Part shown: positions 12,405-64,000 of the stretch, in pieces
Layout of the letters: each line of letters opens with the position of its first letter
Position numbering within the stretch: the first letter of the stretch is position 1
NCBI GenBank assembly: GCA_030583745.1
Contig: CP129473.1
Coordinates: 76,551 to 140,550 of the forward strand
Origin: Minisyncoccota bacterium
GTDB lineage: Bacteria; Patescibacteriota; Minisyncoccia; Phycocordibacterales; BOKC01
Length of the DNA: 64,000 nucleotides
Direction: 5' to 3'
Notes under the pieces: model-generated
The model's input: the letters and a program-made list of their open reading frames with translations, nothing else
Told to the model about the DNA's origin: nothing
Databases searched by the model: none
Position numbers and translations under genes: made by a program

Positions 12405-12410
12405 AATCCC

Positions 12411-12445
12411 TCCCCGCGCCCACAAGGCGCGGGGATTTTGATTTT
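12411..12445 (+). terminator. intrinsic terminator after the FabZ-like gene
   Basis: The hairpin 'tccccgcgcc-cacaa-ggcgcgggga' is followed by 'ttttgatttt'. Confidence 0.7.
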
Positions 12446-12517
12446 ATATAGTCCCTCGGGGCAGAGCCACGAGGTAATGTCGGAATCCTCCGCCAGCTGG
12501 CGAACTACGTCACTTAT

Positions 12518-12760: not shown

Positions 12761-12828
12761 ATACATATCCTGTAAAAAAAGCAACTCCAGACTCTTTTTA
12801 AACCTCAATTAGTATCGATAGTAGGATT

Positions 12829-16725: not shown

Positions 16726-16836
16726 GGTATCAGATTCTTAGTCGTATGACTAAGTCGTCTCTTGCACCGAAAGGTGGGAGGTAAGGGAGTATGTGGGTTC
16801 TCCATTTAACCCATAGTTCAATGAAAGGAGTGTCGT

Positions 16837-33184: not shown

Positions 33185-33225
33185 GCGCTGGCCGGCTCTT
33201 GCGAGCGGCTAGCGCGGGGGTATGG
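33185..33225 (-). terminator. intrinsic terminator after the GC-rich membrane-protein gene
   Basis: On the minus strand 'cccgcgctagccgctcgcaagagccggccagcgcggg' is followed by 'ttttttc'. Confidence 0.6.
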
Positions 33226-33226
33226 C

Positions 33227-49833: not shown

Positions 49834-50163
49834 ATGAACACTTTGTCAAAAACCATAACAGTTTTCAAAAGAAGGCAGAAACCCGTGTCTTGGTTTTTAT
49901 TTTTTTTGGCTTCTGTTCTTGTTTTATCTTATTTATTGAGCGTAAATTTGACTGTATTCAGTACTGCCAAACGAGTGAAGATTAATAAAGAAATAAATCT
50001 CTTGAATTTTCAGGTTGGGCAATTAGAATTTGAGCTTCTCTCAAAGAAAAATGAAATAAATATGAATTTGGCTCGTTCGTTGGGTTTTGACGAAGCTCGT
50101 GACGTCAGGTTTATTTCTAGAAAATCAGTTGCTACAATACTTGGGACGGCTAATATTCAATGA
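49834..50163 (+). CDS. FtsL-like cell-division membrane protein
   Basis: This small single-TM protein carries a coiled coil and sits in the dcw cluster between rsmH and ftsI. Confidence 0.5.
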   Translation: MNTLSKTITVFKRRQKPVSWFLFFLASVLVLSYLLSVNLTVFSTAKRVKINKEINLLNFQVGQLEFELLSKKNEINMNLARSLGFDEARDVRFISRKSVATILGTANIQ

Positions 50164-50184
50164 GAATTGAGTTAAATCAGGTCT

Positions 50185-51903
50185 ATGAAAAATAAAAAAT
50201 CGCCAGCCTTCAGAATCTGGCTTTTGTTTTTTGGTATTTCGGCTTTTGCCCTGATTTTGGTTTTTCGACTTTATCATTTGCAAATTCTACAAGGTGAAGT
50301 CTACAAAGAAAGAGCCGAGAAACAGTATTATTTTCCTCAAACTAATATTTTTAATCGCGGTTCAATTTTCTTTACCAATAAGGATGGAACATCATTTCCA
50401 GCCGCCTTGCAAAAGAACAGTTTTTCGGTCGTGGTCAATCCTTCTGTAATAAGAAGCCATGATTTCTTGTTTTACCAAATTTCTTCAATTATCGATTTGG
50501 ACGAGGAAGATTTTATTGGAAAGCTTAGCAAGGGTGGGGATTATCAAAAAATTGCTTCTAATCTTGATGTTGCAACCGCTGAAAAAATAAAAAAATTGAA
50601 TTTGATTGGTGTTAGTGTTGAACATCAAAAAGAGCGGGTTTATCCAGCTGGCAACTTAGCTTCCCATGCTTTGGGTTTTGTTGGTTTTGTGGAGCATAGT
50701 CGAGTTGGCCAATATGGCATCGAAAGATATTATGAAAATACTTTAAAGAGAGAAAACCAATCAGTTTTTGTAAATTTCTTTGCAGAGGTTTTTGCTGGTA
50801 TAAAAGACAGCGTTTCCATTGCGGAAGTTCAGGAGAAGGAGGGAGATGTTTTAGTCTCAATAGAACCACAAGTTCAGGCTTTTGTTGAAGAAGAGTTAAG
50901 AGATTTAAACAAAAATTTTAATTCACGTTATTCTGGGGCGATTGTGATAAATCCCAAAGACGGAGCGATTGTTGCAATGGCTTCCCATCCGGATTTTGAC
51001 CCAAACAATTATGGAAAAGAGTCTTCAAATTCAATCTTTATTAATCCGTTGGTCGAGAATGTCTATGAGATGGGTTCAATTATCAAAGCTCTGACTTTAG
51101 CCGCGGGTTTGGATTTTGGCACAATTAAACCGGAATCTACTTATTTTGATCCAGGGGTTATAACTTTGAACAATCGCCAGATTTCAAATCACGATGGTCG
51201 TGGGCGCGGACTTGTTGATATGCAGACAGTCTTAAACGAATCTTTAAACACCGGCGCATCTTTTATTGTCCAGCAAATGGGTAATCAAAATTTTGCCAGA
51301 TACATGTTTGATTTTGGTCTGGGAGAAGCATCTGGAATTGATTTGCCAAACGAAGCCGTTAATATTGTTTCCAACTTGAGCAGTAGTCGAGATTTGGAAT
51401 ATGCCACCGCTTCTTTCGGACAAGGCATTGCTTTAACTCCGGTTTCAACAGCCCGCGCTTTGTCGGTTTTGGCTAACGGCGGTTATCTAATCAATCCTCA
51501 TTTAACAAAAAAGGTTCAGTACAAAAATGGTTTTTCGCGCCAGATTTCTTATCAATCTGGTAAAAGAGTCTTAAAACCGGAAACTTCAGAAGAGATAAGC
51601 AGAATGCTGGTTAAAACTTTTGATGAAGCGCTTTTAGGGGGCAGTTTGAAGATGGAAAATTATAGTATCGCGGCAAAAACCGGTACCGCCCAAGTAGCGA
51701 AGGAAGGCGGGCGAGGTTATTATGACGACAGGTTTTTGCATACTTTTTTTGGTTATTTCCCCGCTTTCGACGCTAAATTTTTGGTCTTTCTGTTTACTTA
51801 CGATCCGAAAGGCGTAAGATATGCTTCCGAATCTTTATCTGTGCCGTTTATGGATATTGCCAAATATCTCATCAATTATTATGAAATAACGCCGGACAGA
51901 TAA
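50185..51903 (+). CDS. ftsI: penicillin-binding protein FtsI-like (PBP3 transpeptidase)
   Basis: An N-terminal TM segment is present, with SxxK 'MGSIIKAL' and KTG 'AAKTGTAQ'. It sits in dcw cluster context. Confidence 0.85.
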   Translation: MKNKKSPAFRIWLLFFGISAFALILVFRLYHLQILQGEVYKERAEKQYYFPQTNIFNRGSIFFTNKDGTSFPAALQKNSFSVVVNPSVIRSHDFLFYQISSIIDLDEEDFIGKLSKGGDYQKIASNLDVATAEKIKKLNLIGVSVEHQKERVYPAGNLASHALGFVGFVEHSRVGQYGIERYYENTLKRENQSVFVNFFAEVFAGIKDSVSIAEVQEKEGDVLVSIEPQVQAFVEEELRDLNKNFNSRYSGAIVINPKDGAIVAMASHPDFDPNNYGKESSNSIFINPLVENVYEMGSIIKALTLAAGLDFGTIKPESTYFDPGVITLNNRQISNHDGRGRGLVDMQTVLNESLNTGASFIVQQMGNQNFARYMFDFGLGEASGIDLPNEAVNIVSNLSSSRDLEYATASFGQGIALTPVSTARALSVLANGGYLINPHLTKKVQYKNGFSRQISYQSGKRVLKPETSEEISRMLVKTFDEALLGGSLKMENYSIAAKTGTAQVAKEGGRGYYDDRFLHTFFGYFPAFDAKFLVFLFTYDPKGVRYASESLSVPFMDIAKYLINYYEITPDR

Positions 51904-51919
51904 TGACGGCCTGCAAGAT

Positions 51920-53221
51920 ATGAAAGATTTTCTTAAAAAAACCATTGTTCATCTTATTACTTTTGAATCTAAGCTGATAATCAAAAAATATCAGCCGAAG
52001 ATTGTTGCTATCACCGGCAGTGTCGGCAAAACCGGCACCAAAGATGCAGTTCACGCTCTTTTTTCTAAATTGTTCTATGCCGAAAAAAGTCCAAAAAGTT
52101 TTAACAGCGAAGTTGGGATTCCACTTTCAATTATCGGTGGCCAAAAAAGTGGGTGGAGAAATCCGCTATCTTGGCTTAAGGTTGTTTTGGACGGCTTATT
52201 TTTAATTATTTTACCAAATCATTATCCGAGGTGGCTAATTCTCGAGGTTGGGGCTGACAGGCCGGGAGACATAGAGGAAATTTCAAATTGGCTGAAAACT
52301 GACGTTGCGATCTTCACCAGAATGAGCGAAGTGCCGGTTCACGTTGAGTTTTTTGATTCACCGCAATCAGTCTTAAAAGAAAAAATGTTTTTGTTAAAAT
52401 CTCTTAGGTCGGAGCAGGGCGTTGCAGTTTACAATTACGATGATGAAATTATAAGAAGGGAGATTGAGGACAGAAAAGAATTGACCAAGTTGTCTTATGG
52501 TTTTGACAAAAAAGCCAGAGTCTCTGCTTCAAACTATGCAATTATTTATGATAGAAAAACTGGTTTTCCTTCGGGTATAAATTTCAAAATTAATTTTGAT
52601 GGTTCAAGTGTACCAGCCACGATTTACGACACAGTTGGCCGTCAGCAAGTTTATGCTGTCTTGGCCGGGGTTACGGCCATTTTGTCTCAAGGTGGTAATC
52701 CAGTAAAAGCAATTGAAGGTCTTCTTGATTATAGAAGTCAGCCGGGCCGAATGAAGATTTTAGAAGGTGTAAAAAATTCTCTTATTATTGACGATAGCTA
52801 CAATTCTTCTCCGGTTGCCCTGTTTGAATCGCTTGATACTTTGAAATCTATCAAGTGCGCTGGAAGAAAAATTGTAATTTTGGGCGATATGATGGAGATA
52901 GGACGCTATTCAATTGACGAACATAAAAAAGCCGGAGCTTTAGTGGCCGAGTTTGCCGATTTTATTTTTACTGTTGGTGTTCGAGCAAAATGCATCAATG
53001 ATGGCGCTTTAGAAAGGGGGTTTTCGCCTGAAAAAATTTTTAATTTTGGCGATTCCAGAGAAGCCGGAAAACAAGTGGAAATTATGGTTCAGCCAGGCGA
53101 CATCGTCTTAGTAAAAGGTTCACAATCAGCTAGAATGGAGCGGGCAGTTGAAGAAATCATGAATGATCCGATGAAAAAAGAAGAACTTTTGGTAAGGCAA
53201 GAACAAAGCTGGCGTTTCTGA
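51920..53221 (+). CDS. murF: Mur ligase, probably UDP-MurNAc-pentapeptide synthetase MurF
   Basis: The P-loop 'ITGSVGKTGTKD' and Mur ligase middle and C-terminal domains are present. The 433-aa size and its position after ftsI also fit. Confidence 0.7.
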   Translation: MKDFLKKTIVHLITFESKLIIKKYQPKIVAITGSVGKTGTKDAVHALFSKLFYAEKSPKSFNSEVGIPLSIIGGQKSGWRNPLSWLKVVLDGLFLIILPNHYPRWLILEVGADRPGDIEEISNWLKTDVAIFTRMSEVPVHVEFFDSPQSVLKEKMFLLKSLRSEQGVAVYNYDDEIIRREIEDRKELTKLSYGFDKKARVSASNYAIIYDRKTGFPSGINFKINFDGSSVPATIYDTVGRQQVYAVLAGVTAILSQGGNPVKAIEGLLDYRSQPGRMKILEGVKNSLIIDDSYNSSPVALFESLDTLKSIKCAGRKIVILGDMMEIGRYSIDEHKKAGALVAEFADFIFTVGVRAKCINDGALERGFSPEKIFNFGDSREAGKQVEIMVQPGDIVLVKGSQSARMERAVEEIMNDPMKKEELLVRQEQSWRF

Positions 53222-53359
53222 TAAAAATTTTTGTTTAAGATGTGGTTTGCTAGTTGGCAAAGAGAGAAAAAGAGAAGGTTACTTTTTCATTCCCTCGCCA
53301 TACAGCGCGCCTTCGGCGCGCCCAGATTTTGCGCTTACTTCCGACCAAGTTTCTGAATG

Positions 53360-53603
53360 TGACGATATTATAGCCTTTGCTCGAACCTATTTCGAGTCAA
53401 AGACCGACTGACTTCGCACGCGCGGAGCGCGTGGTGGCTTGGAACTACATCGTACGCTCCGATCGCGTGGTGATGCCAACTCATGCTGCCAGCGCCTCGA
53501 CAAGCTCGGCGCTCCGCCCTCGCCCCGTTTCCGCTCTCCATGCTTTTTCTTTTTTCGCGGGGGGATTTTTTTAAAAATTGAATGGGCGGAAAACGGGGCT
53601 CGG
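53360..53603 (+). repeat. inverted repeat IR244 left copy
   Basis: It is 100% identical to the reverse complement of 59256-59498. The track ORFs 53377..53574 (+) and 59284..59481 (-) give identical 65-aa translations. Confidence 0.9.
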
Positions 53604-53604
53604 T

Positions 53605-54260
53605 CGGGCTTCACCTAAAAGGGTGAAGCGTGGCGTCATTCGTTCAGTGGTGCCTCGGATCTATTCTATCAATTTTGCGTTCATGGCTAAAGGGACGGCA
53701 CCCTCGGCATCCACCTCGGGCTATTTCCGCTAGGGCTACGAGCGCCTAGATGCCTAGGAGTGTCGCTTTTCCTCGCAAGTGCGCCTTGCTAGGCGCTTGC
53801 TCGGGCGACACGCAGTTTGGGGGAAGGAAGGAATCCTTCCCCCAGCTTCGGGCTCCTCCTCGCAGTGGTCGTTCGGAGTGTACGGTGCCGTACAGATAAC
53901 AAGGTACGTCGTGAGTTTCTCTCTCGCTTTGACGTGCCTTCGGAGTCCGCCTTCGCACAACCCCCATCCTCGTTTTCAATATTTCTTTCGTGGTGTCGCT
54001 TCCGCTACGATACTTTGTTTTGCAATATAACGTCGGCGCTCGTCCTTTAGCCCTGGACGCTCCTAGCGGAAATAGCCCGAGGGCTCTGCCTTATGTGCTT
54101 GCCCCAGGCCGTGTTAGTACACGGCTCCCACCCGTGCGCGCACAAACCCCGCCCGCAAGCGGGCGGGACTCCCTGCAAAATGCAAGTGCCCTCGGGAGGA
54201 TTCGAACCTCCAAGATCGGGGTAGAGGCCCGACAGTTTATCCATTAGCTTACGAGGGCAA
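53605..54260. ncRNA. candidate large structured RNA (GC-rich, ORF-free, extensive self-complementarity); identity unknown
   Basis: The region is ~58% GC. The long-range pair 'cctcgggctatttccgctagg' (53722-53742) faces its reverse complement at 54061-54081. Many local hairpins are present (gggggaagg…ccttccccc, gtacggtgccgtac, cccgcccgcaagcgggcggg). The strand of transcription is uncertain. Confidence 0.35.
54185..54256 (-). other. tRNA-like element (T-arm GGAGG-UUCGAAU-CCUCC and 7-bp acceptor GCCCUCG/CGAGGGC; irregular D/anticodon arms; no CCA)
   Basis: On the minus strand it reads 'gccctcgtaagctaatggataaactgtcgggcctctaccccgatcttggaggttcgaatcctcccgagggca'. The anticodon stem 'ucggg/cccga' has loop 'ccucuac' (C at position 33). 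The D-arm is poorly paired, so it is likely a pseudo-tRNA or a structural mimic. Confidence 0.4.
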
Positions 54261-54345
54261 AGAGAAAGAAGCGCATAAATGCGCTGGGGGAATTCTTTAT
54301 CTTCTGTGCCTCGTATTAAACATTACTGTTTACATTAACATTTTT

Positions 54346-54373
54346 TTGAAAAAATAAAAACAAGAGTTATAAT
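54346..54373 (+). promoter_or_regulatory. sigma-70 promoter (TTGAAA-16-TATAAT)
   Basis: It lies upstream of a ~170-nt GC-rich leader that precedes the YjzC-like ORF. Confidence 0.5.
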
Positions 54374-54544
54374 TCAACAATTGAAGTCCTTTGAAATGCT
54401 GGCGGGATAGTCGGAGCGCCCTTTTCTGCATCTTAGGGGATCATCTCACCTCCTCCCCCCTGGTCAGTGCTTTTTCGAGCATTGACTCGGGGGCGCGTAG
54501 CAGGTCGAGCCCCTGGATTACCAGAATTAAGCGAAACGATTGTT

Positions 54545-54706
54545 ATGACTAAAGTCAAAACAGGCGGTACTGCTAAAAAATCTGGACAGTATAGAGTCGA
54601 GGGTACAAAAACCCTCGAGATTACATTGTCTAGAGGCGATCGCGTTCCACCTCATGGAGGAAAGGCGAGAACCTTTGTGCTCGTTGATAAGACGAAACAC
54701 AAATAG
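54545..54706 (+). CDS. YjzC-like small protein (53 aa)
   Basis: 'VKTGGTAKKSGQYRVEGTKTLEITLSRGDRVPPHGGKARTFVLVDK' follows the YjzC pattern (K.G..AP..G.Y.e.G…i.L..GD.fP…..W). The start is at the internal ATG and the RBS is weak. Confidence 0.4.
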   Translation: MTKVKTGGTAKKSGQYRVEGTKTLEITLSRGDRVPPHGGKARTFVLVDKTKHK

Positions 54707-54750
54707 TAAGTAACCGCTAAACTTTTCCTGCCAGCATTTCAGAGGATTTT

Positions 54751-56238
54751 CTATTTTATTCTCAAAAATGGTTTGCTAAGGGTTAAGCGATAATCTCCAA
54801 AAAACTCTTTTATCGTCTTTCTGGTCCTGTGTTTTTCAATGTATTGATCTAAATAAGTGAGTAGTTCTTTTTCAACCTCGACGAAGCTGTCTGGGCAAAT
54901 AGATTTGTAATGATTGACCCAACCGCCAGCAAAAGATTTGTATGCCTTAATTACTTCTCCAAAATCAAATTTTTTGACGATACCAACATTTACAATTTCG
55001 CGCTCAAAAGTGTTTTTAAATTCCTGGATTGCCTCCTTGGGAATGAAAAGACTATTTTTCGAAATACCAACCCCAAGGAATTCGAAACTATTTCCATCAA
55101 TATTTAATAACTGTGTTTTACTACCAACCTCAAGTGGGTGTAATTTCAATTTAAGTTTCTCGCTTCCTGATTTAATTAACTCATATACATTATTTGCTTG
55201 ACCTTCACTTTTTGAAAGAACGATCATGTCATCAAGGTATCTGAAACCCTTGCACCCTTTTACTTTGTTAGGAATTTTATCAAGTGGTAAGGCGTAATAA
55301 CTTGAGAGAAATGGTGAGTATGAAAGACCCTGCGGAATGCCAGTGGTCTTTAGTTTAAGGTGTCCAAATGTTCCATGAAAATCTGAATCTGCCTCAATTT
55401 TATTTTCTATGGATACCTTTATTAATCGAAATAATCTGCGTTGATCTTTGCCTCTGAATTTTTTACTCAGTTGCTTTAATAAAATACTTCTATCAATGGA
55501 TGAGAAAAAATCTTTAAAATCTAATTTTAAAATATAGCGAGCCTCGCCATTTTTTAAAGCTCTCTGTATTTCATTGAGTATTCGCTTACATTCACTGGTG
55601 TCTTTTTCTTTCTTAATACCAAGTCCAAGTGCACCGTATTCCTCTAAGGCTGGTTTTAGAATATTACAAACTTTTGGAAATACGGCTGATAAAACGATCC
55701 GGTCTTTTGAAGAAGGGATAAGAAGGGGTCTATATTTTCCGTTAGATTTTCTTATTTTCAAACCAGAATATGGTAAGAAAGAAAATCGCCGTAATTCTTT
55801 CGAGTAGAATTCGGCTACACTTATCTTCTTTATGTATTTCCCTAGATCATTTAGCTCCCGCTCCTCTATTCCTGAAAATCTTTTTAAATCTGAAAAGTTT
55901 TTGCGAAATACTTTACGTCTCAAACTCTTAAATGCACTTGCGATTTGTTCTTGAGTTAAAAGCAGTTGCAGGTTCACATAATTTTCTATGATAGACGACC
56001 TCACTGGACTCGAACCAGTGCATGTTCCGAAAGATCGTGCTCCCTTAAGGGTAGAGGCTACTGCCGAAGCGATAGCCTCACCATTAAGGGTACTACTTTT
56101 CAGTCCGTTCGTCAACCGAAGTTGATAGACTTTCCTAATCGGTAGGTGGCGACCTGCAAGAGTAAAGTTTATGGCGTGCATAATTCTTTTCCCTCGCAGG
56201 AAGTCGTGAGCCGAAGCCCACTGTAAAATATTATACAT
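54751..56238 (-). CDS. group-II-intron-like reverse transcriptase with maturase/X (thumb) domain, not embedded in an intron ribozyme (G2L-type)
   Basis: RT motifs 1-7 are present: 'NGKYRPLLIPSSKDRIV', 'LKLDFKDFFSSI', 'GIPQGLSYSPFL', 'FRYLDDMIVL' and 'LHPLEV…'. The X-domain 'AGGWVNHYKS' is also present. No D1-D3 or D5/D6 intron RNA is found; flanks are occupied by other genes. The first ~85 codons of the track ORF overlap structured RNA (see findings). Confidence 0.8.
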   Translation of the reverse strand: MYNILQWASAHDFLRGKRIMHAINFTLAGRHLPIRKVYQLRLTNGLKSSTLNGEAIASAVASTLKGARSFGTCTGSSPVRSSIIENYVNLQLLLTQEQIASAFKSLRRKVFRKNFSDLKRFSGIEERELNDLGKYIKKISVAEFYSKELRRFSFLPYSGLKIRKSNGKYRPLLIPSSKDRIVLSAVFPKVCNILKPALEEYGALGLGIKKEKDTSECKRILNEIQRALKNGEARYILKLDFKDFFSSIDRSILLKQLSKKFRGKDQRRLFRLIKVSIENKIEADSDFHGTFGHLKLKTTGIPQGLSYSPFLSSYYALPLDKIPNKVKGCKGFRYLDDMIVLSKSEGQANNVYELIKSGSEKLKLKLHPLEVGSKTQLLNIDGNSFEFLGVGISKNSLFIPKEAIQEFKNTFEREIVNVGIVKKFDFGEVIKAYKSFAGGWVNHYKSICPDSFVEVEKELLTYLDQYIEKHRTRKTIKEFFGDYRLTLSKPFLRIK

Positions 56239-56303
56239 TAACCGGCTTATTCAGCAATAGAAAATCTGTGGATAACTCGCTGTAGTTTTCGGTATTCTTT
56301 CGG

Positions 56304-56325
56304 TTATAATATGCTTATATTATAA
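56304..56325. promoter_or_regulatory. palindrome TTATAATAT-gctt-ATATTATAA in the divergent RT / LexA-MTase promoter region
   Basis: It has 9-bp inverted arms and lies 20 bp upstream of the LexA-MTase ATG. It is a candidate operator. Confidence 0.4.
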
Positions 56326-56345
56326 CATATAACTTTTTATAAATT

Positions 56346-57914
56346 ATGAGATCTCTTACCATAAGACAAAAGCAAATATTCGATTTCATTGACTCCTATA
56401 TAGCGAAGAAAGGCATTTCTCCCACAATAGACGAGATAAGGAAAAAGTTTAAATTAAAATCAGTTTCTACTATTCATCAGCATATAAACGCTTTAGTTGA
56501 AAAAGGTTATTTAGAAAAAGATGAAAAATCCGTCCGAGGTCTTAAAATAAAAGGAGAAACTGACTCTATAAGAATTCCCGTTGTTGGAATGATTGCCGCC
56601 GGACAGCCGATTGAAGCAATAGAGAATATTGAGAGACATATCGGTGTAAGCCGAAGCGTAGTGAAAAATAGCGATGATCATTATGCCTTGCGAGTAACTG
56701 GAGAGAGTATGATTGATGAAGGTATTTTTGATGGAGATATTGTTATCATAAAAAAGCAGTCAGTGGCTGAAAACGGACAAACTGTAGTAGCAATAATCGA
56801 TGACAATGAGGCTACGTTGAAAAAAATATATAGGGAGAAAAACAGATTTAAACTTGAACCGGCAAATCAGAGCATGCTCCCTTTTTATCGCAAAGAGGTG
56901 GAAGTGCGAGGTGTCGTTGTGCAGGTTATCAGAAATATTGATAATCGTCCCGAGGATAAAAAAATTCAGAAAAATGGCTATAAGACCGTTGACTTGTTTG
57001 CTGGTGTAGGAGGAATACGTCTCGGATTTGAAAAAGTCGGTTTTGAAACTGTGTTTGCAAATGATTTTGAACCGCAATGCAAGGACACTTATGATCTTAA
57101 TTTTGACACCTCAAAGCTCGTCGTAGAAGACATAAGAAAAATTGGCATCGAAGATTTGCCTGAATTTGATTTTCTCCTCGGGGGTTTCCCGTGCCAGGCG
57201 TTCTCTATTGCCGGATATAGGCAGGGATTTGGAGATGAGAAAGGTCGCGGAAATTTATTTTTTGACATAGCAAGAATGTTAGAAGCAAGAAAGCCGACAG
57301 GATTTCTTTTAGAGAATGTAAAAAATCTAATGGGCCATGACAAAGGCAGGACTTTCAAAATTATTAAAGAAACTCTTGAGGGTCTAGGTTATCATGTCCA
57401 TGCAAAGGTTCTCAACACTATGGAGTACGGAAACATTCCGCAAAATCGCGAGAGAATTTATATTGTTGGATTTAGGGACAAAAAGCATTTTGAAAGGTTT
57501 GAATATCCTAAGCCCGTTAAACTAGCTGTAAGCGTTACCGACATGCTAGAGGACGAGGTGGATAAAAAATATTATTACAATGGAAAACCCCTATTCCCAA
57601 GGTTAAAAGACGATGTTAAAAAAGAAGGAACGGTTTATCAGTGGAGGAGGAAATATGTCCGGGAAAACAAAAGCGGAGTATGCCCAACGCTTACCGCAAA
57701 TATGGGAACCGGCGGGCATAATGTTCCGATTATCAAAGATAAAAAAGGAATAAGAAAACTAACCCCTTTAGAGTGTTTTAGAATTCAGGGATTTCCAAAA
57801 CACTACAAGCTTCCAGAATTGGCTGACTCTGCACTGTACAAGCAGGCAGGAAATTCGGTTTCTGTGCCAGTAATAGAAGCCGTGGCAAAAGAGATGCTGA
57901 ACGCCGTTAGTTAG
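56346..57914 (+). CDS. LexA repressor (HTH + S24 peptidase) fused in-frame to DNA (cytosine-5)-methyltransferase
   Basis: Residues 1-~200 align with E. coli LexA. This includes the cleavage-site 'IAAGQP', catalytic Ser 'TGESM' and Lys 'TLKKIY', and 'GVVVQVIRNI'. Residues ~205-522 carry C5-MTase motif I 'FAGVGGIRLGF', motif IV 'GGFPCQAFS' and motif VI 'LLENVKNL'. Confidence 0.85.
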   Translation: MRSLTIRQKQIFDFIDSYIAKKGISPTIDEIRKKFKLKSVSTIHQHINALVEKGYLEKDEKSVRGLKIKGETDSIRIPVVGMIAAGQPIEAIENIERHIGVSRSVVKNSDDHYALRVTGESMIDEGIFDGDIVIIKKQSVAENGQTVVAIIDDNEATLKKIYREKNRFKLEPANQSMLPFYRKEVEVRGVVVQVIRNIDNRPEDKKIQKNGYKTVDLFAGVGGIRLGFEKVGFETVFANDFEPQCKDTYDLNFDTSKLVVEDIRKIGIEDLPEFDFLLGGFPCQAFSIAGYRQGFGDEKGRGNLFFDIARMLEARKPTGFLLENVKNLMGHDKGRTFKIIKETLEGLGYHVHAKVLNTMEYGNIPQNRERIYIVGFRDKKHFERFEYPKPVKLAVSVTDMLEDEVDKKYYYNGKPLFPRLKDDVKKEGTVYQWRRKYVRENKSGVCPTLTANMGTGGHNVPIIKDKKGIRKLTPLECFRIQGFPKHYKLPELADSALYKQAGNSVSVPVIEAVAKEMLNAVS

Positions 57915-58956
57915 TTGATATCTTATCAAACAGATCCACAAGATCTTGCGTGGAGTCATTGCCAAATTTCTCAAGCGTGTATTTTAGCGCAATGTTCTCA
58001 TTCCATTTAGAGCTCCGGTCAAATTTATTGAGGTTGATGACAATGTTACCTTTTTGAACAGGAATTCCACTAATTCTAATATCATCTGTAGAATGTATAT
58101 ACAAAGAGCCTTTGTTTTTCTTTAGAATTGTTATCTCTGTTTTGTTTTCACTTTCAATAGCGAACGGAAGACAAACATATCCTTTATCGTATGTATAGGT
58201 AAACCTATTGTTTCCGTCCAAAACCATTTTCTCTTTAAGATTTGCCCCGCGAGGATCTTTATTTTCAGCGCCGGCAAAATAGTACGGGCTCACATCCTTT
58301 TTGCAAAGCGTGAAATTATTTTGAACCTCGCCTTTTGTGTAAATGCCAATTAAGCGCATTGTGCCAACTTTTGCGGTTTTAGAAACAGTAGAATGAGGAA
58401 TAATTTGTTTGTCTTTGTCGCTTTCAATAAATTCGTCGCTCATTTTAAGCTCCTCAAAATATTTGTCAGCAAATGTTTCTTCTTCAAACAGCGATGTCAA
58501 ATAATCTCCCTCCAGATCGGACTCAATAAATGCATAATAATCATCAATCATTTGCGGTTCCCGTACCCCAAGTAACGCCTGATCTTTCCGCACAACTTTA
58601 ACCTCGATCCTCGGCATGCCATCAATATTTGTCCAGGTTCCGTTATTGTATTTTACAAAAGGAATAGTCTTTCCGTCGGAAGTTTGAAGTCCGAGAATAT
58701 CAGGCGCGTTCTTATCAGAGTCGTTAGCATATATAAAATAATCTGAAATAACTTTATATTTGTTATCCTCCAGCAATTTTTCAAAGATAACTGTTTCTGC
58801 GATTTTATTGAACCACCTTTCAATATAACCGCCGATTAAATCTCTTTTAGCAGAAGTGCCCTGGCGATGAAGCGGGTCGCCTTTAAACTTCATTAGAATG
58901 AAGTAAACAATTTTTCTAAGATCATCTTTTGTTATTTCTATTTCCGGGTATTTCAT
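57907..58956 (-). CDS. putative type II restriction endonuclease (PD-(D/E)xK)
   Basis: It converges on and overlaps the MTase by 8 bp. It lies directly downstream of a C-protein gene. A candidate 'PD…(E)VK' motif is 'APDILGL…RIEVKVV'. Confidence 0.55.
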   Translation of the reverse strand: MKYPEIEITKDDLRKIVYFILMKFKGDPLHRQGTSAKRDLIGGYIERWFNKIAETVIFEKLLEDNKYKVISDYFIYANDSDKNAPDILGLQTSDGKTIPFVKYNNGTWTNIDGMPRIEVKVVRKDQALLGVREPQMIDDYYAFIESDLEGDYLTSLFEEETFADKYFEELKMSDEFIESDKDKQIIPHSTVSKTAKVGTMRLIGIYTKGEVQNNFTLCKKDVSPYYFAGAENKDPRGANLKEKMVLDGNNRFTYTYDKGYVCLPFAIESENKTEITILKKNKGSLYIHSTDDIRISGIPVQKGNIVINLNKFDRSSKWNENIALKYTLEKFGNDSTQDLVDLFDKISTN

Positions 58957-58958
58957 AA

Positions 58959-59171
58959 TTATTTGAATCGCAAAAGCTCATCAGGATCCACATCCAGAGC
59001 GTCTGATATCTTTTTTATATTCTCAACAGAAACATTGCGCTCGCCTCGTTCAATATCGCTCATGTATGTTCTGTGCAGTTTCGCTTTTGTAGCGAGTTTT
59101 TCCTGCGAAATACCCGCCTCCAAGCGAAGTTCTTTAATTTTCTGTCCTAATTGTTTCTTAATATTTGACAT
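58959..59171 (-). CDS. controller (C) protein, XRE-family HTH
   Basis: The 70-aa product contains 'LGQKIKELRLEAGISQEKLATKAKLHRTYMSDIERGERNVS'. The stop abuts the downstream REase start. A C-box lies upstream. Confidence 0.75.
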   Translation of the reverse strand: MSNIKKQLGQKIKELRLEAGISQEKLATKAKLHRTYMSDIERGERNVSVENIKKISDALDVDPDELLRFK

Positions 59172-59228
59172 GCAAAGTCTGGTAACTTATTGACTACATC
59201 ATATCTTTTTGAGTAAAATAGGGCTACA

Positions 59229-59249
59229 GACTATAAGTGACGTATAGTC
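59229..59249. promoter_or_regulatory. C-box-like palindrome GACTATA-N7-TATAGTC
   Basis: It lies ~58 bp upstream of the C-protein start and matches the GACT…AGTC C-box consensus. Confidence 0.55.
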
Positions 59250-59255
59250 TAAGCC

Positions 59256-59498
59256 CGAGCCCCGTTTTCCGCCCATTCAATTTTTAAAAAAATCCCCCCG
59301 CGAAAAAAGAAAAAGCATGGAGAGCGGAAACGGGGCGAGGGCGGAGCGCCGAGCTTGTCGAGGCGCTGGCAGCATGAGTTGGCATCACCACGCGATCGGA
59401 GCGTACGATGTAGTTCCAAGCCACCACGCGCTCCGCGCGTGCGAAGTCAGTCGGTCTTTGACTCGAAATAGGTTCGAGCAAAGGCTATAATATCGTCA
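59256..59498 (-). repeat. inverted repeat IR244 right copy
   Basis: It is the perfect reverse complement of 53360-53603. Confidence 0.9.
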
Positions 59499-59578
59499 CA
59501 ATTTAGAACTTTTCCCAATGCGCGTCGCTCCGCGACGAATTCGGACGGAACTGGCGCGCCGAAGCGCGCGGATTTGTC
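59496..59578 (+). repeat. inverted repeat IR83 left copy
   Basis: It is the perfect reverse complement of 60994-61076. It contains the GCGCGC-UUCG-GCGCGC hairpin and lies in the recombinase promoter region. Confidence 0.9.
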
Positions 59579-59604
59579 TCTTGTTTCGTATCTAAAAAAA
59601 ATCT

Positions 59605-61092
59605 ATGTCCAAACCAAAATATTTTCTTTACGCTCGCAAATCGACGGAAGATGATGACAAGCAGGTCATGTCTATCGAGGCTCAACTTTTTGAATTGCGA
59701 GAGTTTGCACGTAAAGAAAATCTTGAAATTGTTGAGACATTTCAAGAGTCGAAAAGCGCAAAGACTCCGGGCAGGCCTCTGTTCAACAAGATGATGGCGA
59801 AGATAGAGGAAATGGAGAATGTCGGCATTCTTGCGTGGCATCCGGATCGTCTCGCGAGAAATAGCGTGGACGGCGGTCGCATCATCTATCTTGTTGACCA
59901 GAAGAAAATCACGTCTTTGCGCTTTCCGACATTTTGGTTTGAACCCACCCCGCAGGGGCTCTTTATGTTGCAAGTGGCGTTCGGTCAATCGAAGTATTAC
60001 TCCGACAACTTGGTGGAGAACACCAAGCGCGGGATGCGCCAAAAAGTGCGGCGAGGCGAGTGGCTCACAAAAGCGCCGTTCGGGTACGTGAACAATCCGA
60101 AGACGAGGAATATCGAACCGCACCCGACTCATTCCAAAATCATCGTCCGCGCTTTTGAGGAGTATGCGAAAAAATCGCACACGCTGAAATCACTCGCCGA
60201 TTTTTTGGCGCTTCACGGAGTAAGTACTTCCAAAGGTACGCCACTTGGCAAAGCTTCCATCAAACGAATGCTGACCAACAGGGCATATTTGGGATTTGTG
60301 AAGCATAAGGAGGAATGGTTTGACGGAAGCTTTGCGCCAATTCTTTCCCCGAAATTGTTTGAAGCCGTGCAAAAGGTATTAGCGACAAGAGAACGCCCGC
60401 GCAAAACAAAGACCGGCCACAATTTTCCTTTCGTTGGACTTTTTCGTTGCGGAGAGTGCGGGAGCATGATCACTGCGCAGTGGGCGACGGGGAAATCAGG
60501 AGGACGGTATCGGTACTATCGGTGCACGAAAAAGAAAGGAAATTGTGACCAAGGGTATATGCGCGAGGAATCTCTTGTCGCAGACGTAAAGGAACGGCTC
60601 CAAACAATTTCGCTTTGCGATGAGGATACTGATTATATGCTCAAGTGCGTTCTGCAATTCGAGCAAGAGGAAAACCGCTCATCGCAAAGCCGCGTTCAAA
60701 ATCTTTCTTTCAAACTCAAAGCAAGCGAGGAGAAGCTTGACCGTCTTGTCTCGGCCTTTATTGATGGTGACATTCCAAAGGAAATTTATCTCGCCAAGAA
60801 GGACAAGCTGATGCGGGAATCACTTGCTTTGCGGGAACAGCGGAAAGATTTTGAACGCGAGGGAAAGAATTGGGTCGAACCCCTACGGGAGTGGATTTTA
60901 GATACGAAACAAGCCAATTTTTTGAGCTCATCCGCTGATTTTCACAAAATCAGCTCCTTCGTCAAAAAAGTTGGAACGAACCCTACGGTTCGTGACAAAT
61001 CCGCGCGCTTCGGCGCGCCAGTTCCGTCCGAATTCGTCGCGGAGCGACGCGCATTGGGAAAAGTTCTAAATTGTGACCCTATCGGGATTTGA
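59605..61092 (+). CDS. large serine recombinase (resolvase/integrase)
   Basis: The N-terminal resolvase domain 'YARKSTEDDDKQVMSIEAQ' carries the catalytic Ser. A recombinase domain and zinc ribbon 'CGECGSM…YYRCTKKKGNC' follow, with a C-terminal coiled coil. Confidence 0.9.
   Translation: MSKPKYFLYARKSTEDDDKQVMSIEAQLFELREFARKENLEIVETFQESKSAKTPGRPLFNKMMAKIEEMENVGILAWHPDRLARNSVDGGRIIYLVDQKKITSLRFPTFWFEPTPQGLFMLQVAFGQSKYYSDNLVENTKRGMRQKVRRGEWLTKAPFGYVNNPKTRNIEPHPTHSKIIVRAFEEYAKKSHTLKSLADFLALHGVSTSKGTPLGKASIKRMLTNRAYLGFVKHKEEWFDGSFAPILSPKLFEAVQKVLATRERPRKTKTGHNFPFVGLFRCGECGSMITAQWATGKSGGRYRYYRCTKKKGNCDQGYMREESLVADVKERLQTISLCDEDTDYMLKCVLQFEQEENRSSQSRVQNLSFKLKASEEKLDRLVSAFIDGDIPKEIYLAKKDKLMRESLALREQRKDFEREGKNWVEPLREWILDTKQANFLSSSADFHKISSFVKKVGTNPTVRDKSARFGAPVPSEFVAERRALGKVLNCDPIGI
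60994..61076 (-). repeat. inverted repeat IR83 right copy
   Basis: It overlaps the last ~30 codons of the recombinase and ends 3 nt inside the tRNA-Glu 3' end. Confidence 0.9.
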
Positions 61093-61148
61093 ACCCGAGT
61101 TTTCGCCTTGAGAAGGCGACGTCCTAGACCAGACTAGACGATAGGGCC
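61074..61148 (-). tRNA. tRNA-Glu (CUC)
   Basis: On the minus strand it reads GGCCCUA-UC-GUC…GAC-G-UCGCC-UUCUCAA-GGCGA-AAAC-UCGGG-UUCAAAU-CCCGA-UAGGGUC-A. Acceptor stem is 7 bp (one G·U), D-stem 3 bp. Anticodon loop is UUCUCAA, giving anticodon CUC. No CCA is encoded. Confidence 0.75.
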
Positions 61149-61189
61149 GCGCCTATAATTTTCCACAAAAATCAGGTTGTCGCAAGATT

Positions 61190-61645
61190 TTAAGAAAAAT
61201 ATCCTTCAACAATTTTTTTAACCTCTCCACCGTCGGCTTGACCTTTCAATTCTTTCATCACCACGCCGATCAGGATTCCAATTTTGCTTTTGTCAGTGAT
61301 TCCTAACTCTTCTTTTTTAGCTAGAGCAACTTTTCTTATTTCATCCAAACCAATTTCTGCCGGCAAGTATTGCTTCAAAATTTCCAATTCTTTTTCTTCC
61401 TGCAGAGCCAAATCAGCACGCCCACCTTTTTGGAATTGTTCTATGGAATCTTTTCTTTGCTTAACAGCCCTTTTAATGACTGCGAAACAATCATTTTCGT
61501 CCAATACTTCCTGTGGTTTACGTCCTTTGGCAACAAGCTCGTTGGTAAAAGCGGCGAGCAACCCCTTCAGAGTATCGGATTTAAGCTGATCTCTTTCTAT
61601 CATAGACTTTTTTAAATCCCCCCTTATTTTGTCGTTTATCTTCAT
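61190..61645 (-). CDS. GatB/YqeY-domain protein
   Basis: 'KDSIEQFQKGGRADLALQEEKELEILKQYLP' matches the YqeY family pattern. Confidence 0.8.
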   Translation of the reverse strand: MKINDKIRGDLKKSMIERDQLKSDTLKGLLAAFTNELVAKGRKPQEVLDENDCFAVIKRAVKQRKDSIEQFQKGGRADLALQEEKELEILKQYLPAEIGLDEIRKVALAKKEELGITDKSKIGILIGVVMKELKGQADGGEVKKIVEGYFS

Positions 61646-61665
61646 TTGTTTGTTATAATTAAATT

Positions 61666-62715
61666 ATGGAAACTTTTCTTATAATTTTGACGATAGTTTT
61701 GGTTTTATCAAATGGTTTTTTGGTTTGGTTTTTTTTGAAATCAAAAAATAGCTCAAAAGCAGGCGATTCCGGACTTAATCTGATTTTACAGCAAATGAAT
61801 GAGCTTGCCAAAGTGGTAGACTCAAAAATGGGCGAGACTTCGCGTCAAGTCAATGAAGCTATCCGCTTTCATTATGGTGATTCGCAAAAGCTTATAAAGG
61901 AAATTACCAGAGAATTGACCGAAGTCAAAGAGACCGGAAAACAAGTAATTTTTTTTGCCGACCAGCTTCAAAGCTTGCAGGATATTTTAAAAAATCCAAA
62001 ACAGAGAGGAGTTCTTGGCGAATATTATCTGGAAACGCTTTTAAAAAATGTTTTACCTCCGGGATCTTTTCAAATGCAATATTCTTTTCCCGATGGAACA
62101 ATTGTTGATGCCGTGGTTTTTGTCAAAGACAGGATAATTCCGATTGACTCTAAATTCTCCTTGGAAAATTACAATAGATTGGCCGAAGAAAGAGACCAGC
62201 CGGAGCGCAAAAGATTGGAAAAGGTTTTTGAAAACGATTTGAAAAACCGTATTGTTGAAACCTCAAAATATATTCAGCCGGATAAGGGGACCATGGAATT
62301 TGCGTTTATGTTCATTCCTCATGAAGCTATTTATTACGATCTGCTTATTGGGAAGGTCGGTTTGATTTCAGAAGAAAATCTTATTCAACGAGCGGCTTCT
62401 AAATATAAAGTCATTATTGTTTCCCCGACCTCGTTTTTAGCTTACCTTCAGACAGTCTTGCAAGGTTTAAATGCTCTCCAAATTGAGGAAAAAGCCCAAG
62501 ATATTGTTAAAAGAGTTGGAGAACTAGGGAAGCATATAAAGGCCTTTGAAGACTACAATTTAAAGCTTGGAAATTCTCTAAAAACCACGGTTAATCAATA
62601 TAATTTGGGCTCAAAAGAGCTTAATAAAATTGACAAAGACGTTCTGCGAATTACTGGTTCAGCCCCGGGAATTGTGACTGAATTTATAGATAAGCCGGCT
62701 GACGAAGATAGCTAA
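61666..62715 (+). CDS. rmuC: DNA recombination protein RmuC
   Basis: An N-terminal TM segment and coiled coils are present, with 'YKVIIVSPTSFLAYLQTVLQGL' in the C-terminal RmuC domain. Confidence 0.85.
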   Translation: METFLIILTIVLVLSNGFLVWFFLKSKNSSKAGDSGLNLILQQMNELAKVVDSKMGETSRQVNEAIRFHYGDSQKLIKEITRELTEVKETGKQVIFFADQLQSLQDILKNPKQRGVLGEYYLETLLKNVLPPGSFQMQYSFPDGTIVDAVVFVKDRIIPIDSKFSLENYNRLAEERDQPERKRLEKVFENDLKNRIVETSKYIQPDKGTMEFAFMFIPHEAIYYDLLIGKVGLISEENLIQRAASKYKVIIVSPTSFLAYLQTVLQGLNALQIEEKAQDIVKRVGELGKHIKAFEDYNLKLGNSLKTTVNQYNLGSKELNKIDKDVLRITGSAPGIVTEFIDKPADEDS

Positions 62716-62756
62716 AAGTTGCAATCGGCGGCTAATTGTGTAGAATTAACAACAAT

Positions 62757-63131
62757 ATGCCCGCCGAAAACAAAAAAACAAAAACAGCTAAAAAAACCGT
62801 AAAGGCAAGTAAGGACGAATTTGCCGTGATTTTGACTGGTGGCAAGCAATATCAGGTTTCGGTTGGCGACACTCTTAAAATTGAGAAAATAAAGGGCGAT
62901 TTCAAAAAAGGCGACAAAGTTGTCTTTGATAGAGTTCTTTTAGTTGATGATGGAAAAGATACTACTATTGGCGCGCCTTACATAGATGGCGCTAAAGTTG
63001 AAGCGGTTTTTGAAGAAGCTGGAAAAAACAAAAAAATTGAAGTTGTAAAATACAAAGCTAAGAGCCGATATTATAAAAGGCGTGGCCACCGACAACCTTT
63101 CTTTAAAGTTAAAATTCAAGCGATTAAGTAG
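62757..63131 (+). CDS. rplU: 50S ribosomal protein L21 with Lys-rich N-terminal extension
   Basis: 'FAVILTGGKQYQVSVGDTLKIEKI…EVVKYKAKSRYYKRRGHRQPFFKVKI' matches bL21. The track offers an alternative upstream start at 62736. Confidence 0.85.
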   Translation: MPAENKKTKTAKKTVKASKDEFAVILTGGKQYQVSVGDTLKIEKIKGDFKKGDKVVFDRVLLVDDGKDTTIGAPYIDGAKVEAVFEEAGKNKKIEVVKYKAKSRYYKRRGHRQPFFKVKIQAIK

Positions 63132-63267
63132 GCGCTAGGAGATTAGGCGCTAGGCGCTAGGAGAAATAGGAGAAAAAATTCTTGTAGTTTGCAAGTTTTT
63201 TTTGTTTCTGTTGATTTATTAAATAAAGAATGTCAGCTGTTTCTTGAAAGTTTATTTAATAAAAATC

Positions 63268-63298
63268 CACCTCGCGGTCGAGGTGGATGGTGCGGCGG
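63268..63298 (-). terminator. intrinsic terminator after the Clp_N gene
   Basis: On the minus strand 'ccatccacctcgaccgcgaggtggattttt' forms the hairpin and U-tract. Confidence 0.6.
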
Positions 63299-63318
63299 CG
63301 GGGGCTATGAGGTCAGTA

Positions 63319-63873: not shown

Positions 63874-64000
63874 ATACCATCTCCTTTCTTGTTTTCTACA
63901 AAAAGCAACGAGCTTTTTGTTTGCGCTCTGTCCTCTTTCTTTATAACAAACCAAACCCCGCCTGACAACCACTTGAAAGCAAAGCTCCCAAGCTTTTTTA

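Follow-up and report, generated by a model that had tools for sequence, protein, structure and literature searches.

The stretch of DNA analysed here, 64,000 nucleotides of contig CP129473.1 from a Minisyncoccota bacterium and referred to below as the window, carries on its minus strand a gene for a reverse transcriptase (RT) that is annotated as an open reading frame (ORF) of 495 codons at positions 54751–56238, with the RVT_1 domain at residues 162–391. Our analysis divides this frame into two parts. The corrected RT gene (54751..55977, minus strand) would encode 408 amino acids from a GTG start codon, an assignment that rests on the conserved start and on the invariant catalytic residues. 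Upstream of it lies a predicted structured non-coding RNA (ncRNA) of approximately 245 nt (55978..56223, minus strand), which occupies the interval between the predicted transcription start and the RT start codon and is indicated by an island of raised GC content, by its fold, by covariation and by upstream stop codons; we refer to it as the leader RNA. The annotated ATG is separated by 107 bp (56239–56345) from a divergent gene for a LexA–methyltransferase fusion, and our measurement of this gap agrees with the distance given in an earlier note on this DNA, made from the sequence alone.

The RT start codon and the upstream region

The start codon of the RT is the GTG at 55977–55975, which corresponds to V88 of the annotated ORF. 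A search of 5.8 billion proteins returned an identical protein from a Candidatus Paceibacterota metagenome-assembled genome, together with 16 clear relatives that are 29–80% identical. Most of these relatives are 405–422 residues in length, and the match is confined to the C-terminal 82% or so of the query. Their sequences begin with M/V-N/D-L, aligned exactly at V88 of the ORF, and at the level of the DNA the start is GTG in 10 distinct loci and ATG in two. Because the homologues start at V88 and the position of the start is kept at the DNA level, we take the RT to be a protein of 408 residues. The earlier note had moved the start downstream of the annotated one, to a GTG near 55981; a downstream GTG is retained here, at 55977–55975 rather than at the position then suggested.

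The three closest loci are L019, L039 and L040, whose RTs are approximately 80% identical to that of the window. Each of them has an in-frame TAA two codons 5′ of the GTG, where the window carries GAA, and in all more distant loci the upstream region contains stops in all three frames. Over the 246 nt upstream of the start, the window and these three loci differ at 15–18 positions with no codon periodicity (e.g. 8:4:6), and in the RT gene 266–279 of 1224 sites differ with the usual excess at third positions (63:39:177). Substitutions are thereby 3–4 times rarer in the upstream RNA region than in the RT gene.

That the annotation is right, and that the RT is a 495-residue protein with an N-terminal extension of 87 residues, is in our judgement close to inconceivable. 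It is true that in the window genome no stop interrupts the frame over the 91 codons ahead of the GTG, and that several other database entries of the family are also called with N-terminal extensions, of 45–110 residues; at least eight family representatives have an extension of this kind, and in P0045 read-through joins the RT to an HsdS specificity subunit. Set against this are the TAA codons of the closest relatives, the stops in every frame at the other loci and the lack of third-position bias. Moreover, the annotated ATG (56238–56236) abuts a conserved −10 box, TATAAT, and the amino acid similarity among the ‘extensions’ tracks conserved RNA helices. We conclude that the 495-codon ORF is an overcall, codons 1–87 being, as far as sequence comparison can establish it, a conserved structured non-coding RNA. 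The earlier note had likewise read the first 85 or so codons as RNA rather than protein, and this reading is borne out by the absence of the extension from the homologues, by the upstream stops and by the missing third-position bias; the search for amino acid selection over these codons, which it had named as a way of refuting this, gave the opposite picture, with stops and an 8:4:6 pattern of differences. The record WKZ26603.1 would accordingly be corrected from 495 to 408 amino acids, and gene callers appear to have absorbed the leader RNA into the RT ORF repeatedly.

The leader RNA, its tRNA-like 3′ end and its promoter

The leader region stands out as a GC island, with 45–50% GC compared with approximately 34% in the rest of the RT gene. 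Its predicted fold has a z-score of −4.4, and none of 100 shuffled sequences folds as well. DNA upstream of the RT was recovered for 20 loci, 16 belonging to a main clade and four to a distant clade. Despite the divergence in sequence, single-sequence folds of the 16 main-clade loci reveal a helix topology that is common to most of them, and RNAalifold, applied to these 16 loci, predicts the helices P1 and P5 and a 3′ element, with compensatory changes in 20 of 30 pairs. The named structure of the 3′ domain was counted on an alignment of 15 loci, in which 91.5% of the cells are standard-paired and 18 of the 30 pairs are changed on both sides. None of 500 shuffles reaches any of the five measures used, and in slid controls, where the pairing partners are moved by 1–3 columns, only 32–49% of the cells are paired.

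A covariance model of the 120-nt 3′ domain scores 53–132 bits at 16 sites upstream of RTs (15 distinct loci and one duplicate) and 28 bits in L044, where P5 is kept and the 3′ element is absent; nothing comparable was found elsewhere in the window or in unrelated loci. No Rfam family was matched at E ≤ 1 over 50000–64000, nor at E ≤ 10 on the 281-nt region 55960–56240. Overall, we conclude that the predicted structure of the leader RNA is conserved across at least 16 loci. The UUCG hairpins, nested stem and T-arm mimic from which the earlier note had proposed a structured RNA are all present in their places, and the proposal itself is upheld by the z-score of the fold and by helices that covary across 15 loci.

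The 5′ terminal hairpin P1, GUGGGC-UUCG-GCUCAC (56206..56221, minus strand), lies just past the predicted transcription start and is present in nearly all loci, where its stem pairs covary (alignment columns 40–53). It is followed by P2 (56153..56200, minus strand), a long-range stem CCUGCGAGGG/CUCUUGCAGG taken from minimum free energy folds, which encloses an AAAG/CUUU pairing and the hairpin UUAUG-CACGC-CAUAA. The P2 pairing GGG/CUC is replaced by AGA/UCU in L019 and L040, as judged by eye in a 5′ half that is poorly aligned. The central region (56093..56146, minus strand) contains P4, AGUC..CAAC-UUCG-GUUG..GACU, the core hairpin of which, CAAC-UUCG-GUUG, is at 56124–56113, and a tentative helix P3, formed by CUAC (56145–56142) with GUAG (56096–56093). 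A helix at the position of P3 recurs in L041, L042, L020, L021, L036 and L043, and is short in each of them.

The long hairpin P5, CCCUUAA-UGGUGAGGCUA...UAGCCUCUACC-CUUAAGGG (56042..56090, minus strand), is conserved in sequence and is capped by GC-UUCG-GC (56070–56063), which sits on the nested stem GAGGCUA/UAGCCUC. In the 15-locus alignment it is represented by helices 1 and 2, comprising 17 pairs of which nine are compensatory, and it is near-identical in L035 although the RT of that locus is only 65% identical.

Unpaired conserved stretches of the RNA, namely the GAAA before P5, the UUUUGGAAC linker and GAUUAG, were considered as candidate templates; no A-B-A′ repeat or homopolymer was seen in them by eye. 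The GUAGUA before P5 was also set aside as a repeat, since only RURNUA is kept across the loci and pairing with an upstream segment is probable.

The 3′ end of the leader RNA is predicted to form a tRNA-like minihelix (55995..56038, minus strand). It consists of an acceptor-like stem of 7 bp, in which ACGAUCU (56038–56032) pairs with AGGUCGU (56001–55995), an 11-nt linker UUCGGAACAUG (56031–56021) that contains an invariant G, and a T-arm, CACUGG-UUCGAGU-CCAGUG (56020–56002), the loop of which, UUCGAGU (56014–56008), is of the GGUUCGAnUCC type and has the residues that are universal in tRNA T-loops. The 3′ strand of the 6-bp stem runs directly into the 7-bp stem, as the T and acceptor stems do in tRNA. 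Across the 15 loci, the minihelix (helices 3–5) has 13 pairs that are 93–100% paired, nine of them compensatory, and the columns G203, G215, U216, C218 and A220 are invariant, with G219 invariant or nearly so. The loop follows a closing G–C pair, and G, U, C, G and A occupy the tRNA positions G53, U54, C56, R57 and A58 and are likewise invariant or nearly so. The invariant G of the linker, UUCGGAAC, could serve as the D-loop G that pairs with C56.

A tRNA is not called by ARAGORN or by the Rfam tRNA model at this position in the window or in the main clade, where the 11-nt linker replaces the D-arm and the anticodon arm. In the distant clade (L026–L029), the RTs of which are approximately 30% identical, a full cloverleaf is present at the same position. 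ARAGORN reports it as tRNA-Lys(UUU) in three loci and as ‘tRNA-???’, with a four-base anticodon, in the fourth. Its Rfam tRNA scores of 33–38 bits exceed the gathering score of 29 and compare with 54–72 bits for real tRNAs nearby, and by the ARAGORN coordinates it ends 3–7 nt before the ATG of the RT. We conclude that an acceptor–T-arm module at the 3′ end of the predicted leader RNA is a feature common to both clades, though not a universal one, L044 being without it. The T-arm mimic of the earlier note thus turns out to be part of a larger tRNA-like module, with covarying stems and with a cloverleaf in its place in the distant clade. A CCA sequence is not encoded at the module. One of the distant-clade loci, L027, also carries a LOOT RNA (RF03000, 71 bits; gathering score 46) at 1551–1683 on the minus strand, approximately 350 nt upstream of the leader RNA.

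The possibility that the module is the leftover attachment site of an integrated element was considered and rejected, as the acceptor and T stems covary on both strands and the module has a fixed position with respect to the promoter and the start codon. A different suggestion makes the tRNA-like 3′ end the place at which, or on which, the RT begins cDNA synthesis after 3′ processing and addition of CCA, as the RT of the Neurospora mitochondrial retroplasmid does. We regard this as quite improbable. It would be consistent with the observations that no structural elements are more strictly conserved across both clades than the acceptor–T-arm stack and the elbow residues and that the module, where present, lies at the 3′ end of the ncRNA. 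Mauriceville-type retroplasmid RTs do initiate at a 3′ tRNA-like end.

Transcription of the RNA and the RT is predicted to start at about 56223 from a σ70-type promoter (56230..56257, minus strand) with a −35 element TTGCTG (56257–56252), a 16-nt spacer and the −10 element TATAAT (56235–56230). In 12 loci a TATAAT precedes the RT start at a near-fixed distance (−247 to −265 nt), and the pattern TTGCnn-16/17-TATAAT is kept in the four closest loci, that is, the window, L019, L039 and L040. A generic promoter scan does not list this promoter because its −35 element matches at only three of six positions.

No terminator is found between the leader RNA and the RT ORF, and the GUG at 55977, 17 nt past the 3′ end of the minihelix, is not preceded by a Shine–Dalgarno sequence. 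These features would suit an RNA that is only a cis-regulatory leader, in which translation of the RT is controlled through binding of the tRNA-like/P5 region by the RT itself or by a tRNA-related factor, and the RT copies other templates. The close approach of the module to the start codon in the distant clade (3–7 nt) and the lack of a template motif among the stretches inspected point in the same direction. It is also well established that group II RTs bind an RNA element, in domain IVa, at their own start codon, LtrA being an example. We nevertheless consider a purely regulatory leader unlikely. An RNA of approximately 245 nt with at least five conserved helices far exceeds what an autoregulatory operator needs, and it evolves 3–4 times more slowly than the RT gene. 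Moreover, the characterised bacterial RTs with a conserved adjacent ncRNA, which are the retrons and the defence-associated RTs (DRTs) DRT2, DRT9 and DRT10, all use that ncRNA as a template (PMC12632851, PMC12483538).

The enzyme, its relatives and the neighbouring genes

The RT has the catalytic residues D153 and Y247-L-D249-D250, of which D153, D249 and D250 are invariant, and a thumb or X motif G352-W353...Y357 (GGWVNHY). Its best match in NCBIfam is TIGR04416, the group II RT/maturase model; profile positions 18–348 of 353 are covered and the thumb is included, but the score of 124.5 bits falls short of the cut-off of 300. Lower scores are obtained with Drt9 (59.8 bits) and Drt2 (51 bits) in PADLOC, and with Drt2 (46 bits, cut-off 390) and retron_St85_RT (57.3 bits, cut-off 235) in NCBIfam. 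Comparison of an AlphaFold2 model (pLDDT 87.9, pTM 0.83) with known structures using Foldseek placed the GsI-IIC group II RT (TM 0.68–0.70) and G2L4 (0.69) at the top, followed by DRT9 (0.52–0.64), the RTs of diversity-generating retroelements (DGRs) and DRT2 (0.47). GsI-IIC and G2L4 are also the best sequence matches among solved structures, at only 19–21% identity or thereabouts. The best annotated plasmid relatives are ltrA genes, with 28% identity over 93% of the protein. By score and fold the RT is group II-like rather than a canonical intron-encoded protein.

The Rfam models for group II intron RNA (Intron_gpII, group-II-D1D4) give no match at E ≤ 1 over 50000–64000, and none at E ≤ 10 over 53200–54300 or 55960–56240. 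From its sequence and its predicted fold, we conclude that the RT is a free-standing enzyme of the group II-like (G2L) type that has no intron ribozyme. The earlier note had placed it with the maturase-type RTs of group II introns and had seen neither domains D1–D3 nor domain V beside it; the near full-length TIGR04416 match, the GsI-IIC and G2L4 similarities, the GGWVNHY motif and the ltrA matches agree with the first statement, and the Rfam search with the second.

An exhaustive HMMER search over 1.84 billion representatives resolved the RT family into approximately 36 clusters at 50% identity that score above 175 bits; below them is a gap, and then a continuum at 116–158 bits. A scan of genome contigs with the RT yielded only retron-type RTs, 24–32% identical over parts of the query, which arise through the shared motif LDFKDFF. 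The family was not found on viral contigs, where only distant relatives with 23–27% identity were seen, and comparable metagenome matches at approximately 25% identity (L030–L032) are RTs of the DGR type.

The best match of the RT in PADLOC is RT_UG17, the DRT10 model (E 3.9e-39, 132.7 bits). It could then be asked if the enzyme is a divergent DRT10 (UG17) that lacks the SLATT effector and copies a template loop of the RNA into tandem-repeat cDNA by protein priming, an alternative to which we give very little weight indeed. UG17 is the former group II-like class G2L3, and DRT10 uses a structured ncRNA (PMC8632793, PMC12632851, respectively); many distant members of the present family, furthermore, end in a conserved ...Y-L that recalls the priming Tyr/Ser of DRT10. 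However, the UG17 hidden Markov model (HMM) aligns only at profile positions 56–294 of 429, and all 41 of the nearest outgroup RTs tested match it as well, with E-values of 1e-20 to 4e-55 (131.6 bits for P0057). The same 41 RTs all match the group II model (best E 3e-85), and the outgroup RTs score better on TIGR04416 than on RT_UG17. Since group II-like outgroup RTs score in the same range, the RT_UG17 match is non-specific, as fits with the origin of UG17 in class G2L3 (PMC8632793). A SLATT gene, which is needed for defence by DRT10 (PMC12632851), was found neither among the neighbours in the window nor among ten proteins encoded beside the RT at other loci (nine on its downstream side) that were tested with Pfam and PADLOC, nor in the gene tables of 12 loci. 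The ncRNA also differs in lying directly before the RT, in being approximately 100 nt longer and in having no identifiable A-B-A′ loop, and main-clade RTs have F, not Y, near the C-terminus. Membership of DRT10/UG17 on the strength of the PADLOC match was rejected on account of the non-specific HMM and of the SLATT gene not being found.

The C-terminal sequences themselves may be recorded here. Many of the distant members (P0031, P0038, P0041, P0042, P0045, P0054 and the RT of L026) end in ...(K/N)x(Y/F/I)YL, the Tyr next to the C-terminus being reminiscent of the residue that serves for priming at the C-terminus of DRT10; in the main clade this place is taken by PF(L/I)R(I/M)K.

The divergent neighbour of the RT gene (56346..57914, plus strand) encodes a LexA DNA-binding domain and an S24 peptidase fused to a C5 cytosine methyltransferase of the Dcm type, as identified by Pfam and PADLOC. 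A LexA-like neighbour is found only in the four closest loci, at 1653–3050 in L039, 291–872 in L019 and 3–374 in L040, on the minus strand in each. The LexA parts are 48–58% identical over the four loci (58% between the window and L039). In L039, the LexA–S24 portion is fused to an unrelated N6/N4 methyltransferase, and a second methyltransferase is also present. To judge from its domains, the LexA–S24–methyltransferase looks like the methylase of a restriction–modification (R–M) system wired to a self-cleaving repressor of the SOS type. The end of its gene is overlapped by that of a 349-residue protein (57907–58956, minus strand), which has no match in Pfam, NCBIfam or PADLOC and is probably an unclassified type II restriction endonuclease; beyond it is a gene for a control protein, or C-protein (58959–59171, minus strand; 93 bits).

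Between the divergent promoters, approximately 10 nt upstream of the −35 element, is a perfect match to the DnaA-box consensus, TTATCCACA (56267–56275, minus strand). It forms part of AGTTATCCACA, a block of 11 nt that does not vary among the four closest loci. The block adjoins two direct repeats, of ACCGAAA in the window and L039 and of ACTAGAA in L019 and L040. The window has three copies of TTATCCACA, where 0.36 would be expected. The two motifs and the direct repeats are possibly operator sites.

These intergenic motifs and the divergent LexA-like gene, both conserved in the four closest loci, would accord with a role of the RT in the repair of host DNA, like that of G2L4, with induction by DNA damage through the LexA-like repressor and with the RNA in a regulatory or scaffold role. 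In support of this explanation, G2L4 is one of the two best structural matches (TM 0.69), and the active site, YLDD, has a bulky residue in contrast to the YADD of group II introns. We find it improbable all the same. The similarity to the sequences of the G2L4 structures is weak (43.6 bits, 19% identity), so that the RT is not a G2L4 orthologue; the family, with its approximately 36 clusters in 1.84 billion representatives, is rare and patchy; its surroundings are mobile and defence genes with no conserved repair context; and the LexA domain is fused to R–M methyltransferases and is absent at the other loci. An ncRNA of G2L4 is not mentioned in the titles of the PDB entries or in PMC8632793, although no search was aimed at one.

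The neighbours at other loci are varied. An MmeI-type enzyme and a large serine recombinase are found at the P0006 locus, Shedu SduA directly after the RT in L021, a PDC-S28 helicase in L022, an Mrr-type nuclease in L023 and RelE in L044. Serine recombinases are also near the RT in L024, L028 and L035, making four loci with that of P0006. Across the loci compared, no conserved partner protein of the RT was found, and the neighbours differ. The gene content is rich in defence and mobility functions, and this context points to defence. The suggestion of the earlier note, that adjacency to an R–M module signals a defence role, is sustained in one respect, as defence genes neighbour the RT in many independent loci; the R–M adjacency itself is kept only through the LexA-like domain, and only in the four closest loci.

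A second GC-rich segment lies on the other side of the RT gene. At 53300–54185 (minus strand), directly 3′ of a tRNA-Arg(UCU) gene (54186–54258), are approximately 850 nt of non-coding DNA with a GC content of 50–62%, compared with approximately 37% for the genome. Of this, the 496 nt at 53690–54185 fold with a z-score of −6.6, with a closing helix of about 22 bp (approximately 54085–54058 with 53735–53710), and no Rfam match is obtained at E ≤ 10. The RNA starts with AAGGGAG, a GC hairpin, and UGCGCGCA ... CAAGCACAU ... AUUUCCGCU ... GGCUAAAGGAYGAGC. Its first 150–190 nt or so are homologous to the sequence right after the RT stop in L039, L040 and L019, and no homologue was found at any further RT locus. 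Possibly the module of this sub-lineage includes it as a second RNA; alternatively, the two may be unrelated. A 15-nt motif of this RNA matches viral contigs about as often as our own estimate of chance would have it, and was discarded as uninformative.

In the window, the tRNA-Arg gene and an ORF of 79 residues (54467–54706, plus strand; no family match) separate the RT from the GC-rich RNA, and they do not do so in L039, L040 and L019. The ORF is flanked by 24-nt inverted repeats (54384–54407 and 54726–54749; 88% complementary) and looks like an insertion. Downstream of the RT in L040, at approximately 2020–2535 (plus strand), is a 171-residue ORF in a segment of 59% GC, a composition foreign to the host of approximately 34% GC, between two copies of a AAGGGAGCCCCGCCCGC hairpin. 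Further GC-rich islands of the window (0.50–0.66), at 33201–33600, 16801–17200, 12001–12800 and 59201–61200, may also be structured RNAs, and one of them may be linked to tRNA-Glu (61073–61148).

The conserved GC-rich RNA after the RT stop in L019, L039 and L040 has a bearing on whether the locus is a selfish retroelement, either a degenerate group II intron or a retroplasmid-like element with a tRNA-like initiation site. The RT is group II-like, the differing flanking genes suggest mobility, and an RT that starts at a 3′ tRNA-like end has its precedent in the Mauriceville-type retroplasmids. Yet the intron searches described above returned neither domain V nor any other intron domain, the element is present in a single copy in the window, and no target-site duplications or conserved terminal repeats were found; a 9-nt repeat at both ends of the ORF is not conserved. 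Rather than ending the coding RNA on its 3′ side, the tRNA-like module precedes the ORF and follows the promoter of the element; the downstream RNA is missing from all other loci of the family, and the nearby serine recombinases can account for mobility. A selfish retroelement is in our view a very slender prospect. The RT ORF also has a direct repeat of 17 nt at either end, with ATAGAAAAT as its core; this repeat occurs in no other locus and was put down to chance.

The proposed module and its relation to known systems

On balance, we lean towards a two-part module, in which a G2L-type RT and its own cis-encoded ncRNA would act as a stand-alone antiviral system resembling DRT2 and DRT9. Its components may be assessed separately. 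By analogy with characterised systems, the leader RNA and the RT very probably form a functional pair; that the leader RNA is also the template of the RT, which the same analogy suggests, is an evenly balanced proposition; and a role in defence has chances that are even or slightly better.

In the proposed scheme, a single promoter would give a transcript from about 56223, the first 230 nt or so of which would fold as P1, P2, P4, P5 and the minihelix. The tRNA-like module would most likely recruit RNase P, RNase Z and the CCA-adding enzyme, so that the ncRNA is cut from the mRNA and its ends are defined, and it may double as a docking handle for the RT. The RT would bind the leader RNA, as group II RTs bind domain IVa and as the RTs of DRT2, DRT9, DRT10 and retrons bind their ncRNAs (PMC12632851; PMC12483538; PMC9226505), and would copy a segment of it into cDNA. 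The ribonucleoprotein and the cDNA would then act against phage as a single-gene system. The lack of a conserved partner protein fits a stand-alone RT–ncRNA system such as DRT2 or DRT9 (PMC9226505; PMC12483538).

Several observations weigh against this module. The part of the leader RNA that is most conserved in sequence, P5, is a helix, and no template of the A-B-A′ type, as in DRT10, or of the poly-U type, as in DRT9, was recognised by eye. The 5′ half of the leader RNA aligns poorly, and the tentative helix P3 is no better than in shuffled sequence at any locus. L044 has P1–P5 without the tRNA-like module, which argues that the module is dispensable. Close kinship and shared synteny among four of the loci, together with the shortness of most contigs, make the association with defence genes weaker than it looks; a taxonomic label, Paceibacterota, is available for just one family member. 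Finally, group II-type RTs can also serve DNA repair, as G2L4 does.

Retrons, DRT2, DRT9 and DRT10 each showed an unexpected mode of making DNA and became tools for genome engineering. If the two-part module is correct, it would be an RT–ncRNA defence pair from a third lineage, group II-like and belonging neither to the UG/Abi RTs nor to the retron-type RTs, and it would be found in the ultra-small bacteria of the candidate phyla radiation, the RTs of which are reportedly for the most part those of DGRs (PMC8632793). The literature searched, the coverage of which was incomplete, yielded no account of a bacterial RT, defence-associated or group II-like, that is accompanied by a tRNA-like ncRNA; as far as that literature extends, the RT and its tRNA-like leader RNA are a rare and undescribed pair, and an earlier description is possible. 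The tRNA-like module makes it possible to test the idea of tRNA-like ‘tags’ as sites of recognition or initiation by RTs, and the link of such tags to telomerase-like repeat synthesis. Were initiation at the tRNA-like end to prove true, this would be a bacterial RT with a ‘genomic tag’, and would supply a missing link that joins group II-type RTs to retroplasmids and to the telomerase-like lineage of DRT10.

Among known systems, retrons resemble the present one in having a structured ncRNA just upstream of the RT, where it is probably bound and copied by that RT. The present RT, however, is not of the retron type, being approximately 100 residues longer and having a group II thumb; there is no effector gene, and terminal inverted repeats of the msr/msd kind were not seen. 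DRT10 (UG17), in which an ncRNA, a SLATT protein and an RT produce tandem-repeat cDNA, likewise combines a group II-related RT with a multi-stem ncRNA; the locus studied here differs in having no SLATT gene, in the placement of the ncRNA directly before the RT and in that no A-B-A′ template loop was identified.

The G2L classes, such as G2L4, reportedly go back to Simon and Zimmerly in 2008. With these RTs the enzyme shares a length of approximately 400 residues, the group II N-terminal extension, the fingers and palm, an X/thumb region with GWxNxY and the lack of a ribozyme. It is only 19–21% identical to them, more or less, and belongs to a small family of its own that is set off by a clear gap in score, in a context of defence islands and mobile genes rather than of repair. 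The conserved cis-encoded ncRNA with its tRNA-like end also distinguishes it from G2L4 and G2L5, for which none is mentioned in PMC2602772 or PMC8632793.

The tRNA-like structures of retroplasmids and plant viruses, and signals of the mascRNA type, offer a parallel for an acceptor–T-arm stack with a canonical T-loop in a transcript that is not a tRNA, here beside an RT gene. The RT of the Mauriceville and Varkud retroplasmids is also group II-related. In contrast to the 3′ tRNA-like structure of these plasmids, the present module is internal, upstream of the ORF, reduced to a minihelix in the main clade and without an encoded CCA.

The closest resemblance in organisation is to DRT2 (UG2) and DRT9 (UG28), in which a promoter, a structured ncRNA of approximately 170–300 nt and the RT follow one another on the same strand, with no partner gene and in defence islands; both are, in addition, among the top structural matches of the RT. 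The RT itself lies outside UG2 and UG28, there is no poly-U template, and the ncRNA belongs to a different family, with no Rfam match and with a tRNA-like module at its end. The match to DRT2 and DRT9 is one of architecture and not of family membership.

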